From positions 1 through 44,341 of the forward strand of contig JAIPDY010000001.1 in NCBI GenBank assembly GCA_021737445.1: a DNA stretch of 44,341 bases, given 5' to 3'. The first letter of the stretch is position 1. Every line of letters starts with the position of its first letter. Below the pieces are notes generated by a model. That model did no database searches. It was not told where the DNA came from and was given only the letters and a program-made list of their open reading frames with translations. Origin of the DNA: Desulfotignum sp. (GTDB lineage Bacteria; Desulfobacterota; Desulfobacteria; Desulfobacterales; Desulfobacteraceae). Below, in pieces: positions 351 to 7,657 of the stretch. The position numbers and the translations under genes were made by a program.

Positions 351-2368
351 AACGGACCTCCCTGCCCGACCGCCCCGTTGAACAGAGCATCCAGCGCCAT
401 GGCAATCACCCGGGGCACTTTTGGACGGGTGACAAAAACCTGCCAGGTCTCCAGGGGTTTTGCCGCGATCATTTCAGCTGTTTCCCGGCAGGTTTGCTCA
501 AATGCCCCCAGATCTTTTATCAGGCCTTTGTCATACTCATCGCTGACAGCCATGGCCGTGGCCATGAATCCCCGGTAAAACGGATCCAGCAGAAGGGTCT
601 CCACTTTCTGAATCAGCATATTTTCCGAAATATGACACTGACAGGGAAGGTCTTCGGACAAAAGTTCATGCAGGGAAATCCCCCTTTTTTCCAGGCGCCG
701 GAAAATATTGCGGTCGGACGTGATGCCGTTCTGTTTTTTGACAGCCTCTGTCACCGCCCGGTGAACCGCCTTGCCGATCAGTTCCCCCAGCCGGGTGTGC
801 CCGCCGGCATTGTCCAGGACAGCCGGGCCTTGGCCTTCCACCACCAGGATGTTGTCCGTGCCCGTGCCCGTGGCCCGGTACCGTCCCTGTTCATAGCTGG
901 AGCGGATATCTAAGTCCAGCAGGGCCGCGGTTTTTCCTTCCGTGGCCGTGATCATGGCCCGGGTCATGGCCCGGGGGGTCAGGCGGTGACTGGTCATGAT
1001 GATCACATTGATGGTGCCGGGTTCATAGAACCCTCCGGAATCCCGGGAGGTCCGCATGGCATTGCCGTCCACCCCGGCCGTGGCAAACACCGTGACCGCA
1101 ATATCTTTGAACCGCTCCTGTGCCGCACCCAGATGATCCATATCCGCCCCGGTGAACAGAAAAGCCGTGGTGTCCGGTGCCAGACCCAGCACATCAAACA
1201 CCTGGGTTTTCAAAACATCCAGCCCCTGGTCATGGACCAGAAGCCAGGTTTCCGGAGGGATATAATGATTTCCGATGGCGGTAACCCCGTGCTTAAATCC
1301 CTCCAGCGTGGAAAGAACCGACATGGGCCGGTCCAGCTGGATCACCAGAGACTTGTTGATAAAATCAAGGATCCGGCTCTGCTTGACCGCCGCCGCCTGG
1401 ACACAGGAAACATCTGTTTGTATGGGATTGCTTTGCGTCACCTGATTTTTTTGAAGCAGGGTGCGCTCATCTGCCAGGGAACTGCCGTGGATGGTGGCAA
1501 AAAGCCGTTTGACAAACTGTCCGGAACGGATGGATGCCCGGCAGGTCAAATCACAGGGGAAATAATAGATTTGGTTGTTTTTCACCGCATCCACATCTTT
1601 CCATCCGGGAAGGGAAAAAAACCGGTCCGCTGCTTCCCGGTCGCTGCCGCATCCATAAATCACCTGGGGATTGAAAGACGTCCACTGATCCTTTGATACC
1701 GGCACCACCGCACCGGTGCCAAAATCCGGGGGAATGCCCCCGGCCAGGGAGATCATATGATTCTGGAATGAATCGCTGCCCGGGGTCATGATCTGTTCTC
1801 TTCCCATGAGCCGGATCACCCGTTTGGGGGAGAGATCCGTTTTTCTCATTTTGGCGGTGACCCAGTCCAGGTCCGCTTTGATTTCAGCCACAAGGTGCCG
1901 GGCGTTTTCCTGTTTTTCCACCAGGTCTCCCAGCCGCAGCACCGTGTTCAGACTGTCCCGGAGGGTCTGTGTTTTGGCATGCACCCGCAAAATATCCCGG
2001 GACAACACAGAGGACAATGCCTGTAATTGAAACGGGTCATAAAAGACCAGGTCCGGTTCCAGGGCTTCAATGGCGGCCGGGGATGGAAAGGAAAATCCGC
2101 CCACCAGGGTTTTTCGGGCCGCATACCAGGGCCGGGTCGTATGGTAGGTAATGCCTGTGACCGAATCCTGTGCGCCCAGTGCAAACAGCATTTCCGTGAT
2201 TGACGGCACCAGGCTCACAATCCGGTCCGGTTTTTTTGTGAGCTGAATCTCATTGCCGGTGCCGTCGGTAAACCGCAATTCATTGCACAACCCGGGGGCA
2301 GATCCGAATATCCATGCGCTGATCAGGATTCCCAGCAGCGCAATGATGCAAACATGACAAGATCTCAT
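347..2368 (-). CDS. cbiZ: Fusion of BtuF-like corrinoid-binding protein and adenosylcobinamide amidohydrolase (CbiZ)
   Basis: The N-terminal hydrophobic leader and 'PDRIVSLVPSITEMLFALG' mark a binding protein. The C-terminal half has CbiZ motifs 'FTGADM', 'ATAGV', 'PGTIN', 'TATEGKTAAL' and 'ATGTGTD'. Start placed at ATG 2368 (ATGA overlap with the btuB stop); the ORF track extends to 2380. Confidence 0.85.
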   Translation of the reverse strand: MRSCHVCIIALLGILISAWIFGSAPGLCNELRFTDGTGNEIQLTKKPDRIVSLVPSITEMLFALGAQDSVTGITYHTTRPWYAARKTLVGGFSFPSPAAIEALEPDLVFYDPFQLQALSSVLSRDILRVHAKTQTLRDSLNTVLRLGDLVEKQENARHLVAEIKADLDWVTAKMRKTDLSPKRVIRLMGREQIMTPGSDSFQNHMISLAGGIPPDFGTGAVVPVSKDQWTSFNPQVIYGCGSDREAADRFFSLPGWKDVDAVKNNQIYYFPCDLTCRASIRSGQFVKRLFATIHGSSLADERTLLQKNQVTQSNPIQTDVSCVQAAAVKQSRILDFINKSLVIQLDRPMSVLSTLEGFKHGVTAIGNHYIPPETWLLVHDQGLDVLKTQVFDVLGLAPDTTAFLFTGADMDHLGAAQERFKDIAVTVFATAGVDGNAMRTSRDSGGFYEPGTINVIIMTSHRLTPRAMTRAMITATEGKTAALLDLDIRSSYEQGRYRATGTGTDNILVVEGQGPAVLDNAGGHTRLGELIGKAVHRAVTEAVKKQNGITSDRNIFRRLEKRGISLHELLSEDLPCQCHISENMLIQKVETLLLDPFYRGFMATAMAVSDEYDKGLIKDLGAFEQTCRETAEMIAAKPLETWQVFVTRPKVPRVIAMALDALFNGAVGQGGPL

Positions 2369-4356
2369 AACAACCGCCATTTCAGACCGATATATCCGGA
2401 AAGGCCCGGGGTGGCATAACTGAAGGCATCTTCGTAATATTTGTCAAACAGGTTGTCCACCCGGGCAAAGATCTGGAACCGGTCACTGATGTCACAGGAT
2501 CCGGACAGGTTCACCACGGTATAGTCATCCAGGGTGTTCACCAAATGGCCGTCCTTATCTTTAGCATAAGAGGAGGCAGCCCGTTCGCCCACCCACCGGG
2601 CATCCATGCCCACCTGCCATTTTTCCAGAAACCGGTAGGACGCGGTCAGTCCCACCTGGTTTCTTGGACGTCTGACCAGCCGGTTCCCTTCAGGATCCCG
2701 GGTATGGGTATAGGTGTAGTTGAGGTTGAAAAACAGATTCCTGAGCGGTGTCCAGGCAGCTGACACTTCCACCCCCCGGGTTTCGGTGTCTCCTTCAAGC
2801 TGATTGTATTTTGAGATGAGCATGTCATAACCGATCCGGTTTTCAAAATCCATTTCCCAGTAGGTCACTCCCAACGTCAGGTGATCATCCAGAATACCCT
2901 GCTCCACCCCCAAATCCCAGCCCCGGCTTTTTTCCGGCGCAAGATCCGGGTTCCCATAGACGGAATAAAGTTCATACAGGGAGGGAGACCTGAAACCGGT
3001 GCCGAAACTTGCTTTGAACCGGGTGCCGGTTGAGAAGATCTCATAGGCGGGCGCAATCCGAAACGTGGTCTTTCTGCCGAACGACTGATGATCATCCAGC
3101 CGGGCCCCGGCGATCAAAATTAGGTTTTCGCCGACAAAGAGCTGGTCCTGGAGCCAGTAACTCAGGGTGTGGGTATCAATGTCTGACACTGCACTGCTGA
3201 GGCTTTCCATGGTTTCGTTAAAATACCCGGTGCCAAAGGACAGCACACTGTTTTCAAAATCAATGTTGCCCTGCCAGGAAAAATCGTCGGTTCCGCCTTT
3301 ATAGTCATACCAGGGCAGATTGTCGTTATCGTAAGCCTGACGGTTATTTCTGTTAAACTTATATGACAGGATGGATTCAAACCGGCCCTGGGCAAACCGG
3401 TTGTTGATTCCGATGTGTCCCATCCATTGTTCTGATTCAGATCGTTTGTATGTGGGGCCGTCCGGGTTGGGAACCAGGGTGTTGACCCAGGCACCGGTGA
3501 CTGGATCCGGCACCCAGGTGGAAGTGATGTTGTCTCCGGTATACCCGTCTTCATAATCATCCAGATCCACCTGTGTATCCACATATCTCACGCTGGATGA
3601 CAGGGTGAAATTGTCATTAAATTCAAATCCTAAGTTGCCGGAAAGCGTGAGATTGTCATACCCGTCTTTTTCATCGGTGTTGCCGCCCTGGGGGATGCGT
3701 GGGTTGTCCTTGTCTGCAATGGAAAACCCGTCCCGGGACAGGTAGGAACCGGACACGGCATATGTGAGCTTGTCTGTGGCACCTGAGGCATGGGCGCCGG
3801 TTTTCCAGGTGCCGTAGGAGCCGCCTTCCACGGAAGCAGTGATCTCAGGGGCTTTGCCGCCTTTTTTGGTGATGATGTTGACCACGCCGGCCGTGGCGTT
3901 GCTGCCGTACATCACACTCATGGCACCTCTGACCACTTCGATACGTTCCACCTGATCCAGGTTGATATCTGAAAGATCAGCAGACCGGTTGGCACTGGAC
4001 GGATCATTGAGAACAATGCCGTCCAGCATCACCAGGGTATTTTTGGAGTCCGCTCCCCGGATGAACACGGATGCGGAAGTTCCCATGCCGCCGGTGGATG
4101 TCACAAACACACCGGGCACGGTTTTGAGAAGCTCCAGCACGGTGTGGGCGTTTTTTTCTTCGATCTCTTTGGCCGTGATCACTGTGACGCTGTTGCCGCC
4201 GATCTTTGCTGAAGTGGTTTCTGTCTGGGTCACTGAAACCACGACCTGATCCATGGTGGTAACCGCTTCATCTTCTGCCCGGCCGGCGGAAGCGCCGGTG
4301 ATTGCCGTCATCCAGAAAACAGCGATGATCCCCAGGTACATCCCTTTTTTTTTCAT
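2365..4356 (-). CDS. btuB: TonB-dependent outer-membrane cobalamin receptor
   Basis: Signal peptide, TonB-box-like 'DQVVVS', plug motifs 'IRGADSKNTLVMLDG' and 'VERIEVVRGAMSVMYGSNATAGVVNIITKK', C-terminal 'NLFDKYY...PG'. Lies directly downstream of a cobalamin riboswitch. Confidence 0.88.
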   Translation of the reverse strand: MKKKGMYLGIIAVFWMTAITGASAGRAEDEAVTTMDQVVVSVTQTETTSAKIGGNSVTVITAKEIEEKNAHTVLELLKTVPGVFVTSTGGMGTSASVFIRGADSKNTLVMLDGIVLNDPSSANRSADLSDINLDQVERIEVVRGAMSVMYGSNATAGVVNIITKKGGKAPEITASVEGGSYGTWKTGAHASGATDKLTYAVSGSYLSRDGFSIADKDNPRIPQGGNTDEKDGYDNLTLSGNLGFEFNDNFTLSSSVRYVDTQVDLDDYEDGYTGDNITSTWVPDPVTGAWVNTLVPNPDGPTYKRSESEQWMGHIGINNRFAQGRFESILSYKFNRNNRQAYDNDNLPWYDYKGGTDDFSWQGNIDFENSVLSFGTGYFNETMESLSSAVSDIDTHTLSYWLQDQLFVGENLILIAGARLDDHQSFGRKTTFRIAPAYEIFSTGTRFKASFGTGFRSPSLYELYSVYGNPDLAPEKSRGWDLGVEQGILDDHLTLGVTYWEMDFENRIGYDMLISKYNQLEGDTETRGVEVSAAWTPLRNLFFNLNYTYTHTRDPEGNRLVRRPRNQVGLTASYRFLEKWQVGMDARWVGERAASSYAKDKDGHLVNTLDDYTVVNLSGSCDISDRFQIFARVDNLFDKYYEDAFSYATPGLSGYIGLKWRLL

Positions 4357-4436: not shown

Positions 4437-4498
4437 CCCTTTTTAACACAAGATCTTGATCTGATTTTTTCTTGTCCGCGGAAAAAATCCAAAAACAC

Positions 4499-4662
4499 CC
4501 CAGGCAGGTCTTCTGACTCACGGATCATCCTACTGGCCGCGTCTTCCCATACCATCATGGCACAGTGACATTATTGCGGCGGGGGTCCCCGTTTACAGCG
4601 GCGGGCCCGTCCCTGACTTTCACAGGGTTCCCTTTCAAGCTCAAAAATGAGCACCTTGGCGT
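4499..4662 (-). ncRNA. Cobalamin (B12) riboswitch
   Basis: The reverse complement reads ...AAGGUGC...UGAAAGGGAAcccuGUGAAAgucagggACgggCCCGCCGCUGUAA...gUCACUG...UGGGAAG...GAGUCAGAAGACCUGCC, which contains the conserved elements and the B12 box. It lies upstream of btuB. Confidence 0.93.
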
Positions 4663-4803
4663 ATGATCTGATTACCTATTGGCCGGCCGCTTTTTTGTCA
4701 AGTATTTTTTTTGCGGAGTCACCGACTTGCCCAATCTATCAGGCCCTGACAGCCGGTTTTTGGCGGTTATGCAGGAGTGTCCTGGTTAATGTGAAAAATG
4801 GTG

Positions 4804-4832
4804 TTGACATGGATCTTGTGGTGTGTCATTAT
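4804..4832 (+). promoter_or_regulatory. Putative sigma70 promoter of arsR-hgcAB
   Basis: TTGACA (4804-4809), a 17-nt spacer, then CATTAT (4827-4832) preceded by TG (extended -10). Confidence 0.6.
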
Positions 4833-4887: not shown

Positions 4888-5154
4888 ATGGATATGGAGC
4901 AGGTTACAAAAATTTTCAAGGCCCTGGGCCATCCCACCCGGATAAAGATCGTTAAGCACCTGATTGAGATTGACACCTGCATATGCGGAGAGATCGTGGG
5001 GATTTTCCCCTATTCCCAGTCCACCATCAGCCAGCATTTGAAGATGCTTAAGGAATCTGGCATTGTCTGCGGAGAGGTGGAAGGACCCAAAACCTATTTT
5101 TGTGTGGATAAAAACATGTTAAACCAGTTCAAACAATATGTGAACGATTTATAG
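4888..5154 (+). CDS. arsR: ArsR/SmtB-family transcriptional repressor (hgcR-like)
   Basis: 'FKALGHPTRIKI', 'TCICGEI' (CxC), 'SQSTISQHLKMLKESG'. Lies 17 nt upstream of hgcA. Confidence 0.9.
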   Translation: MDMEQVTKIFKALGHPTRIKIVKHLIEIDTCICGEIVGIFPYSQSTISQHLKMLKESGIVCGEVEGPKTYFCVDKNMLNQFKQYVNDL

Positions 5155-5171: not shown

Positions 5172-6380
5172 ATGAAAATTTTCCCAATGGACACCAAGTC
5201 TGACAAACCGGGCCGCGAACCTTTTCAAAAAAAAGGCCCTGGCCTGTCAACCACCAATGTACAGATCATGCCATCCTTGGATAAGGCCGGTTCGGCATGC
5301 GAATCGGAACATACCCGCCCCATGGCCGCATATGACAAACCTGGATATACATTGTGCGATTATGTGAACCATTTTATTGACACCGGTGCCGGCCCGGTGC
5401 CCGTAATCCGGCCGGAGCTGGACAAATGGGACCGGCTGTCCACCATTGCGGTCCGGTGCGGCATCCGGCGGCACAAGTATCTGGTGAGCCCCGGGCTTTA
5501 CGGCATCGGATCACCGGCCCCGGATTCAGAAGTGCTGGTGACCGCCAATTACAAATTGACCTTTGATCATTTGAGATCCGCGCTGGGCAGCATCAGTGCC
5601 TGGATCCTGGTGCTGGACACCAACGGGGTGAATGTCTGGTGCGCAGCAGGCAAAAAAAATTTTTCCACCCGGGAGCTGGTCAACAGAATCAAAGCGGTGT
5701 CTCTTGAAAAGGTGGTGATCCATAAACGGGTGATCGTCCCCCAGCTGGGTGCCACCGGGGTATCAGCCAGAGAGGTTAAAACACAGTCCGGTTTCCGGGT
5801 AGTGTACGGCCCGGTGCGGGCCTGTGATATCCCGGCATTTTTGAACAACGGCAGAAAAGCGGACAAAGCCATGCGCCAGGTCACGTTCACCCTGTTTGAA
5901 CGGTTTGTGCTGACCCCGGTGGAACTGCACGGGGCGTTGAAAATGGCAGGTATCACAGCCTTGGCGCTGTTTGTGCTTTCAGGCATAGGTCCGGGGATAT
6001 TTTCTTTTCACGGGGCATGGGAAAGGGGCCTGGTGTCCCTGGCCGCCCTGATCTGCGGACTGTTTTCCGGCGCGGTTCTGACCCCGGTGCTGCTGCCGTT
6101 TATCCCGTCAAAAAAATTTGCTTTTAAAGGCATTTTCATGGGAACTGTGTGCACCCTGTTGCTGTTGCCGGTCATTTATCCCGGGATCGGCAGCATGACC
6201 GGTGCAGCAGCCCTGTTTATCTTCAGCGTGATGGTGAGCTCCCATCTGGCCATGAATTTCACCGGGGCCACCCCGTTCACCTCCCCTTCCGGGGTGGAAA
6301 AAGAGATGAGGCAATACCTTCCCGTCCAGCTGGCAGGGGTTCTGGTATCTGCGGGGCTGTGGATTTACAGTGCATTTTAA
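5172..6380 (+). CDS. hgcA: Mercury methylation corrinoid protein HgcA
   Basis: Cap-helix motif 'GVNVWCAAGK' (NVWCAAGK at 5631-5654), plus 'VLVTANYKLTFD', 'PQLGATGV', 'YGPVRA', C-terminal TM helices and 'MNFTGATPFTSPSGVEKEM'. Confidence 0.97.
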   Translation: MKIFPMDTKSDKPGREPFQKKGPGLSTTNVQIMPSLDKAGSACESEHTRPMAAYDKPGYTLCDYVNHFIDTGAGPVPVIRPELDKWDRLSTIAVRCGIRRHKYLVSPGLYGIGSPAPDSEVLVTANYKLTFDHLRSALGSISAWILVLDTNGVNVWCAAGKKNFSTRELVNRIKAVSLEKVVIHKRVIVPQLGATGVSAREVKTQSGFRVVYGPVRACDIPAFLNNGRKADKAMRQVTFTLFERFVLTPVELHGALKMAGITALALFVLSGIGPGIFSFHGAWERGLVSLAALICGLFSGAVLTPVLLPFIPSKKFAFKGIFMGTVCTLLLLPVIYPGIGSMTGAAALFIFSVMVSSHLAMNFTGATPFTSPSGVEKEMRQYLPVQLAGVLVSAGLWIYSAF

Positions 6381-6414: not shown

Positions 6415-6702
6415 ATGAAGGATTTCAGATATCTGGAGGATGTGGCCACCCTGGTGCTGGATGAGCAAAAATGCATCGGCTGCGGGTTGTGCACCGAGGT
6501 CTGCCCCCAAGCCGTGTTTGAGATGAATGAAAACAAAGCCCGGATCGTTGATTTCAATGCCTGCATGGAGTGCGGGGCCTGTGTCAACAACTGCCCGGTG
6601 GATGCCATATCGGTCAGTCCCGGGGTGGGGTGAGCCGCCTATATTATCCAGGTCTGGATAAAGGGCAAGGAAAAAGCCTCCTGCGGGGACGGCTGCTGTT
6701 GA
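6415..6702 (+). CDS. hgcB: Mercury methylation ferredoxin HgcB, predicted selenoprotein (UGA at codon 73 = Sec)
   Basis: Two [4Fe-4S] motifs, CIGCGLCTEVC and CMECGACVNNC. After 'SPGVG' comes TGA (6631-6633), then in frame AAYIIQVWIKGKEKASCGDGCC-TGA. Total 95 aa with the conserved terminal CC. RBS AAGGAG. Confidence 0.92.
6634..6666 (+). promoter_or_regulatory. Putative bacterial SECIS element
   Basis: Hairpin TTATCCA-GGTC-TGGATAA (6644-6661) with a possible lower stem GCC...GGC. The apical G is 18 nt after the UGA. Confidence 0.75.
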
Positions 6703-7045: not shown

Positions 7046-7657
7046 ATGAAGATCCTGATCGTGTTTTATTCCACCTATGGACATGTGTATGAAATGGCCA
7101 AAGCCGTTGCAGAGGGTGCAGAACAAATTGACGGGACTGAAGTGGACATCCGGCAGGTGCCGGAAACACTTTCTGATGACGTGCTTGAAAAGATGGGGGC
7201 GGTTGAGGCAAAAAAAGCGTTTTCCCATGTGCCGGTGTGCATGGTGGAGGAGCTGGAAAAGGCGGATGCCATTATTTTCGGCACCCCCACGCGGTTCGGT
7301 AACATGTGCGGCCAGATGCGCCAGTTTCTGGATGCCACCGGTCAATTGTGGGTAAACGGATCGTTGATCGGAAAGGTGGGAAGCGTGTTTGTGAGCACGG
7401 CCACCCAGCACGGAGGCCAGGAATCCACTATTCTGTCTTTCCATACCACGCTGCTGCACCACGGGCTGCTGGTGGCGGGACTGCCCTATGCTTTCCAGGG
7501 CCAGATGCGCATCGATGAAGTCACCGGCGGTTCTCCCTATGGTGCATCCACCATTGCCGGGGGAGACGGGGCACGGATGCCCTCAGAAAATGAACTGGAC
7601 GGGGCCCGGTTCCAGGGAAAACATGTGGCAAAAATTACCGCAAAGCTGGCGGGTTGA
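7046..7657 (+). CDS. wrbA: NAD(P)H:quinone oxidoreductase WrbA (flavodoxin-like)
   Basis: 'VFYSTYGH', '[14 protein letters not shown]', '[12 protein letters not shown]', 'GGSPYGA'. RBS GAGGAGG before ATG 7046. Confidence 0.95.

Follow-up and report, generated by a model that had tools for sequence, protein, structure and literature searches.

The stretch of DNA analysed here (the window; 44,341 nucleotides of a Desulfotignum sp. genome, contig JAIPDY010000001.1) carries an hgcB gene on its forward strand at positions 6415-6702. The open reading frame encodes 72 residues up to an in-frame TGA at codon 73 (6631-6633, forward strand; context SPGVG*AAYII), where homologues have TGC or TGT in the same column, and then continues for 22 more codons to GDGCC, with the terminal Cys-Cys codons at 6694-6699 and the true stop, another TGA, at 6700-6702 (both forward strand). 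If TGA73 is read as selenocysteine (Sec), the product has 95 amino acids. A preliminary description of this sequence had placed the TGA between GVG and AA and proposed a 22-codon tail ending in Cys-Cys and a 95-residue protein, and the same frame was found on translation. In profile searches against the NCBIfam HgcB model NF040864 (cut-off 99 bits), the read-through product scored 126 bits over model positions 1-93, and the form truncated at codon 73 scored 104.9 bits over positions 1-68, still above the cut-off. The protein contains two CxxCxxCxxxCP ferredoxin motifs, CIGCGLCTEVCP and CMECGACVNNCP, with C(M/I)ECGA included, and has both the Cys/Sec at residue 73 and the C-terminal Cys pair of HgcB, provided that TGA73 is read through. 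The 13 nearest named records are all from Desulfotignum, with 88-95% identity. A second Sec at the terminal TGA (giving CCU) was considered and rejected, because TAA or TAG ends 23 of 101 hgcB genes of the family Desulfobacteraceae (TGA 78, TAA 17, TAG 6) and the frame closes after 8 codons.

Directly upstream, 34 bases from hgcB, ends hgcA (5172-6380, forward strand; 402 aa), which scored 415.7 bits on NF040863, has an intact NVWCAAGK cap helix and was the sole full-score hgcA found by profile search in the assembly. A fused HgcAB-like protein (NF043039, which needs more than 285 bits) was rejected for this locus, where separate open reading frames score 196.1 and 63.7 bits. The gene directly upstream of hgcA encodes an ArsR/SmtB-family regulator (4888-5154, forward strand; NF033788, 67.6 bits against a cut-off of 55), and ahead of arsR-hgcA-hgcB lies a sigma-70-like promoter match on the forward strand (4804-4832; 10/12, a consensus match only). 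Divergent from these genes on the reverse strand are a cobalamin riboswitch (4486-4672), a BtuB-like TonB receptor (2365-4356) and a BtuF-CbiZ fusion (347-2380), so that genes of B12 uptake and salvage adjoin genes of a B12-dependent methylase. Downstream of hgcB, genes for a small FeoB-associated Cys-rich membrane protein (PF12669; 6821-6976) and a WrbA-type NAD(P)H:quinone oxidoreductase (7046-7657) follow on the forward strand.

Sec at residue 73 of HgcB was predicted by Haft and Gwadz in 17 of 266 HgcB proteins (6.4%), in a section that, in the text available, names no taxa or SECIS element (bioRxiv 10.1101/2022.07.06.499078; cited as J Bacteriol 2023). A 2026 review, as far as its accessible text goes, lists Sec-HgcB as NF040864 with the motif GVGU (PMC13188914), and the accessible part of another article mentions the prediction and describes no test of it (PMC11588087). 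The statement in the preliminary description that such variants had already been predicted thus agrees with both the printed record and NCBIfam NF040864. Sharing Sec73 in GVGU, a terminal Cys-Cys and an adjoining hgcA with the proteins described in the accessible text of Haft and Gwadz, the window gene is a member of that group, and it is very probably, on sequence evidence, a real selenoprotein gene of this already described kind. As portrayed in the accessible parts of PMC7305189 and PMC11588087, HgcB of Pseudodesulfovibrio mercurii ND132 likewise has two 4Fe-4S motifs, a residue 73 that opens a helical extension, Cys94/Cys95 and a length of 95 aa, and the partner HgcA of both organisms has the NVWCAAGK cap helix. 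ND132 HgcB has Cys73, whereas the window HgcB would have Sec73 instead.

Standard annotation truncates the gene, as had been expected: the window HgcB product is stored as 72 aa in the protein collection searched, and all members of its 8-member cluster are 72 or 87 aa long, none being 95. In the three cluster members inspected the sequence stops at GVG, and the entries are named 'PreA subunit' or 'ferredoxin'. The further claim that motif filters would discard the gene holds only for a filter that demands the CC tail and fails for routine pipelines. The hgcB filter of the consensus protocol requires, in the accessible text, only C(M/I)ECGA and an hgcA on the contig (PMC10087281), and since the truncated form also passes NF040864, the gene would normally be kept.

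The machinery for Sec insertion was searched for in the assembly, which comprises 260 contigs and is 88.9% complete. The genome has selA (595 bits, above the cut-off), selD (349 bits, with its 5' end beyond a contig end) and a tRNA-Sec with anticodon UCA (74.4 bits). The selB match reached 226 bits against a cut-off of 242 because its first ~66 model positions lie beyond the contig end, and the SelB wing-2, wing-3 and beta-barrel domains each exceeded their Pfam cut-offs. A split of selB across two contigs was rejected, the second match being EF-Tu. All four components (selA, selB, selC and selD) that the preliminary description had suggested looking for are therefore present. Across the family, selA matches were found in 154 of 161 genomes, including 96 of the 100 with TGA-type hgcB, and the remaining four TGA73-hgcB genomes are 63-92% complete. 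A crude genome scan for further SECIS-bearing genes gave 31 candidates, among which only hgcB was recognisable as a selenoprotein. Separately, a PylS match over its cut-off (253.6 bits; G000:C25:7705-8433) and a tRNA-Pyl(CTA) call were noted, which makes it likely that selenocysteine and pyrrolysine are both in use in this genome.

Codon 73 was then compared across homologues. Among 161 species-level Desulfobacteraceae genomes, 101 have hgcB, and in these 101 loci, all of which were fetched, codon 73 is TGA in 100 and TGC in one. The single Cys73 member (L136, genome G111) combines a divergent hgcB with a CU-bearing HgcA and falls outside the Sec clade on the tree; its hgcAB was likely acquired separately. 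Another member (L033, genome G118) has Sec-type hgcB with no hgcA within 1.5 kb upstream, a region occupied by other genes. An order-level sample of 401 genomes gave 198 matches, 150 of which were listed and 144 of which lay outside Desulfobacteraceae. Thirteen of these 144 listed matches have an internal stop, and fetching all 13 revealed nine with TGA73 and four with terminal stops, so that 135 of the 144 listed matches from other families of the order are without Sec73. The resulting comparison set of 160 loci contains 109 with TGA and 51 with TGC or TGT at codon 73 and nothing else, the Cys controls being the 30 best-scoring and 18 chosen across families among the additions; the proposed alternation of Cys and TGA codons in this column was thereby borne out. 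The tail after TGA is conserved as protein in the 109 Sec genes, 98 of which have the CC terminus. These genes are kin, and their counts do not represent independent events: on the HgcA tree, the Sec rows with enough sequence (95 of 95) are all set apart by a single branch of support 100. As judged from this tree, Sec73 within the order is of one origin, with a few copies in other families.

The codon itself is covered by contigs of four public runs from four studies, mostly from related strains and with one run sharing a study with the possible source run, and no alternative letter is listed at 6631-6633. A TGA confined to this assembly or devoid of read support, which would have spoken against the proposal, was thus ruled out by 99 other family genomes and by the contigs of the four runs. 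Expression from one RNA run was also considered and set aside, as the contigs over the locus derive from relatives and contigs cannot show transcription.

Just 3' of the TGA, a SECIS-like hairpin with a 7-bp stem and the 4-base loop GGUC lies at 6644-6661 on the forward strand (+14 to +31, counted from the U of UGA), within the stretch that encodes IIQVWIK. By folding energy alone it is unremarkable (z -0.42 for 60 nt and -1.79 for 45 nt; 8 of 200 shuffles were as good), and the only Rfam match in the window at gathering score was the cobalamin riboswitch, with no match to SECIS. Comparison among homologues was more informative. The full stem (7/7 pairs) occurs in 108 of 109 Sec genes versus 2 of 51 Cys genes; among the 21 Cys genes whose product shares the YIIQxWI peptide, 2 have it. 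The Ile codons of the stem are fixed in Sec genes (ATT 109/109, ATC 108/108 and ATA 109/109), whereas upstream Ile codons of the same genes are mixed (ATT 131, ATC 122 and ATA 79) and third positions flanking the hairpin on either side are freely variable. The G at +22 is invariant in Sec genes, and no two-sided compensatory pair changes were found within the 109-gene Sec clade. The pattern strongly suggests a frozen sequence under selection rather than covariation. In the bacterial SECIS of the Escherichia coli fdhF type, a short hairpin follows UGA closely within the coding region, and a G opens its apical loop. The window hairpin is likewise short, coding, immediately downstream of UGA and with G at the start of the loop; the bulged U of the fdhF stem is absent from it.

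With the Sel machinery, the alternation of Cys and TGA codons and the SECIS-like constraint all backing the earlier proposal of Sec at position 73, the in-frame TGA73 of hgcB very likely encodes selenocysteine. Overall, the explanation that accounts best for the observations, and which we hold with high confidence, is that the gene yields a full 95-residue HgcB through SECIS-guided UGA decoding, with Sec73 as the likely mercury ligand in place of the essential Cys73. In the first step, SelB-GTP-Sec-tRNA would almost certainly bind the hairpin and decode UGA73. Compared with Cys, Sec is more acidic, a softer ligand and of higher affinity for mercury. It is reasonably probable, as a single model, that the two 4Fe-4S clusters reduce the corrinoid of HgcA, that the Cys-Cys tail brings in Hg(II) and takes away methylmercury with residue 73 as the hand-over ligand, and that the Sec73 selenolate, by binding mercury more tightly than a thiolate, favours hand-over to this residue. 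The role assigned to residue 73 comes from a computed model in which, according to the text available, the strictly conserved Cys73 starts a helix packing on the membrane helices of HgcA, and Cys94/95 deliver Hg(II) to the corrinoid and then transfer methylmercury to Cys73, from which it is released (PMC7305189). Replacement of Cys73 by Ala abolishes methylation and a Cys94/95 double mutant loses 95% of it, as quoted there from Smith 2015 (PMC7305189), and S-adenosylmethionine is described as the methyl donor in the accessible account of purified HgcAB (PMC11588087). A stop at codon 73 removes residue 73, the HgcA-packing helix and the Cys-Cys tail, so that methylation would need selenium; in cells short of selenium or the Sel system, the ribosome would probably halt at this codon and methylation would cease.

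The main rival accepts Sec73 and assigns it mainly to a native substrate (arsenic or another metal(loid)) or to a redox role, Hg methylation being a side reaction for which Cys is equally good. This seems rather unlikely. The ArsR-family gene directly upstream of hgcA would suit it, as would the lack of Sec73 in most of the hgcB matches listed for the order outside Desulfobacteraceae, and the accessible text of PMC7305189 calls the reason for microbial Hg methylation unknown. On the other hand, Hg methylation by the Cys form requires position 73 according to the same text, and no sign of another substrate was found in this analysis.

Read-through of UGA73 by other means, either leaky insertion of Cys or Trp or a genome-wide reassignment of TGA, appears very improbable. 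Cys would function at site 73, and the inserted residue is deduced from sequence, which leaves such a reading some room. Against it, TGA serves as a stop more often than any other codon in this genome, ending 566 of 1217 open reading frames of at least 350 codons, and tRNA-Trp has the anticodon CCA, which together argue that there is no global recoding of TGA; the only UCA anticodon among the 34 tRNAs is that of tRNA-Sec, and the SECIS-like hairpin is constrained in TGA genes only. The same abundance of TGA stops could be cited for codon 73 as a true stop, leaving a 72-aa two-cluster ferredoxin or an hgcB pseudogene with methylation lost or tail-free, as could the 72-aa form held in databases and, in the HgcA of the clade, the decay of the CC/CU motif and the variant cap helices (11 of 93 family HgcA) described below. 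Even so, a true stop is slightly less probable again, given that the 22-26 codons past TGA keep their amino acids with third positions free outside the hairpin, that the CC end persists in 98 of 109 genes, and that codon 73 is never TAA or TAG in these 109 genes though the terminal stop varies. An error of assembly or sequencing confined to this genome, for which the fragmented and incomplete assembly might be invoked, can be dismissed, as the same codon occurs in 99 other family genomes, in the records of cultured isolates and in contigs of other runs.

The selenium site of HgcB was also considered together with HgcA, for which an N-terminal CU or CC motif is described in the accessible text of Haft and Gwadz (bioRxiv 10.1101/2022.07.06.499078). 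Compared with selenoprotein HgcA (PCUGP/CC, NF040863) as described there, the window HgcA is extended at its N-terminus by a similar length and shares the downstream KPGY anchor; it differs in having neither CU nor CC. At this position it has a single Cys, relatives having CC or CU, and there is no in-frame TGA, so the selenoprotein (PCUGP) form was rejected for the window HgcA. ND132 HgcA, by contrast, has a predicted CU at this place (bioRxiv 10.1101/2022.07.06.499078, text available). Of the 100 family Sec loci, 7 showed no hgcA cap motif in the DNA examined and 4 were at a contig edge, and the 89 scored have CC in 10, CU in none, a single Cys in 56 and no Cys in 23; selenium would thus be in HgcB only within the Sec clade. 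The CC/CU motif has decayed in 79 of these 89 loci versus 1 of 50 Cys73 controls, a pattern that rests on one Sec73 origin, and 49 of the 50 Cys73 loci of other families keep CC or CU (C-x-U being counted as CU). Rows keeping CC are dispersed in the Sec clade (11 of 95, with 10 changes and clustering no greater than in shuffles), which would fit relaxed selection after Sec73 arose and is offered as a lead rather than a result.

Tentatively, and with more doubt than confidence, it may be supposed that in the ancestor of the Desulfobacteraceae hgcAB Sec73 took over metal-holding from the CC/CU of HgcA, which then decayed repeatedly, leaving a single obligatory selenium site and a selenium-switched methylmercury output. 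A general selenium swap between HgcA and HgcB was rejected, because the HgcA motif is retained in 15 of the 17 Bacillota loci scored and in 4 of 4 Desulfobulbales-like ones. The scored Bacillota Sec-HgcB loci (for 8 of 25, the fetched DNA contained no hgcA) have CU in 13, CC in 2, no extension in 1 and an unresolved state in 1, and the Desulfobulbales-like Sec loci with hgcA all keep CC, one of them across a frameshift. The decay of the HgcA motif in the Sec clade was not found in the literature searched and appears to be a new addition. As a separate observation, 11 of 93 family HgcA proteins, including those of loci L010, L022, L031, L035, L081, L095 and L128, have a cap helix that matches none of the six consensus motifs (NVWCAASK in 4, NVWCAASE in 4, NVWCAAGE in 2 and NVWCAASM in 1), and the recommended high-stringency hgcA filter would drop those 11 for this reason.

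Beyond the family, a SECIS-independent pattern scan of species genomes yielded at least 119 loci from 53 of 64 parts, with approximately 150 estimated in all. Of these loci, 86 have the Desulfobacteraceae-type hairpin (one being a near variant), 25 are from Bacillota, 6 are Desulfobulbales-like and 2 are from Chloroflexota. The Bacillota loci have a different hairpin at about +28 to +42, with 5 or 6 of 6 pairs in all 25 and changes on both sides of pairs, and the Desulfobulbales-like group (L191, L210, L236, L246, L253 and L273) has a third, 6-bp hairpin of its own at +17 to +31. In Bacillota loci such as L168, L181, L188, L189, L201, L211, L222, L224, L226, L238 and L241, among others, a Sec codon is present in both HgcA (CU) and HgcB (U73); the hairpin loop in these loci is GGN, and many have a short tail with no terminal CC. 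The best trees (a quick tree and a 42-row set), built with the Cys-form sisters of the Bacillota Sec group left out, need 3-4 Sec73 changes, and a single Sec73 clade was not rejected by the AU test (p 0.127 for 42 rows; p 0.35 for the deltaproteobacterial groups only). The different hairpins and best trees may suggest separate Sec73 origins across groups, though the AU result is compatible with one clade. Three Sec groups with three different hairpins were not found in the literature searched.

The added value of the present analysis lies in scale: hgcB is present in 101 of 161 species-level family genomes, and in 100 of these it contains the Sec codon. Compared with the 17 of 266 given in the accessible text of Haft and Gwadz, it offers 100 of 101 in one family, a defined hairpin and the ~150 stretches estimated. 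Neither an experimental study of Sec-HgcB nor a report of family-wide or near fixation of Sec73 was found in the literature searched, subscription journals being mostly outside its coverage. The core fact of Sec73 is already known, and the family-wide fixation, the defined SECIS and the decay of the HgcA motif are useful additions. The protein sets of ordinary gene callers drop residue 73 and the tail in Desulfobacteraceae, which can bias HgcB alignments. Cultured carriers of Sec73-hgcB are on record (Desulfocicer vacuolatum, Desulfospira joergensenii and Desulfamplus magnetovallimortis), so that experiments on what residue 73 does can draw on a natural Cys/Sec pair. Selenium is regarded as a mercury scavenger; if read-through is obligatory, it would, beyond this, be a requirement for methylation in Desulfobacteraceae. 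According to the accessible parts of two studies (PMC9494745, PMC8163782), the organisms that carry and express hgc genes in low-oxygen marine and brackish water include Desulfobacula, as represented by MAGs. Should the reading of a single selenium site be true, selenium supply would act at translation as the switch for methylmercury output by these sulfate reducers, which are widespread in marine and brackish settings.
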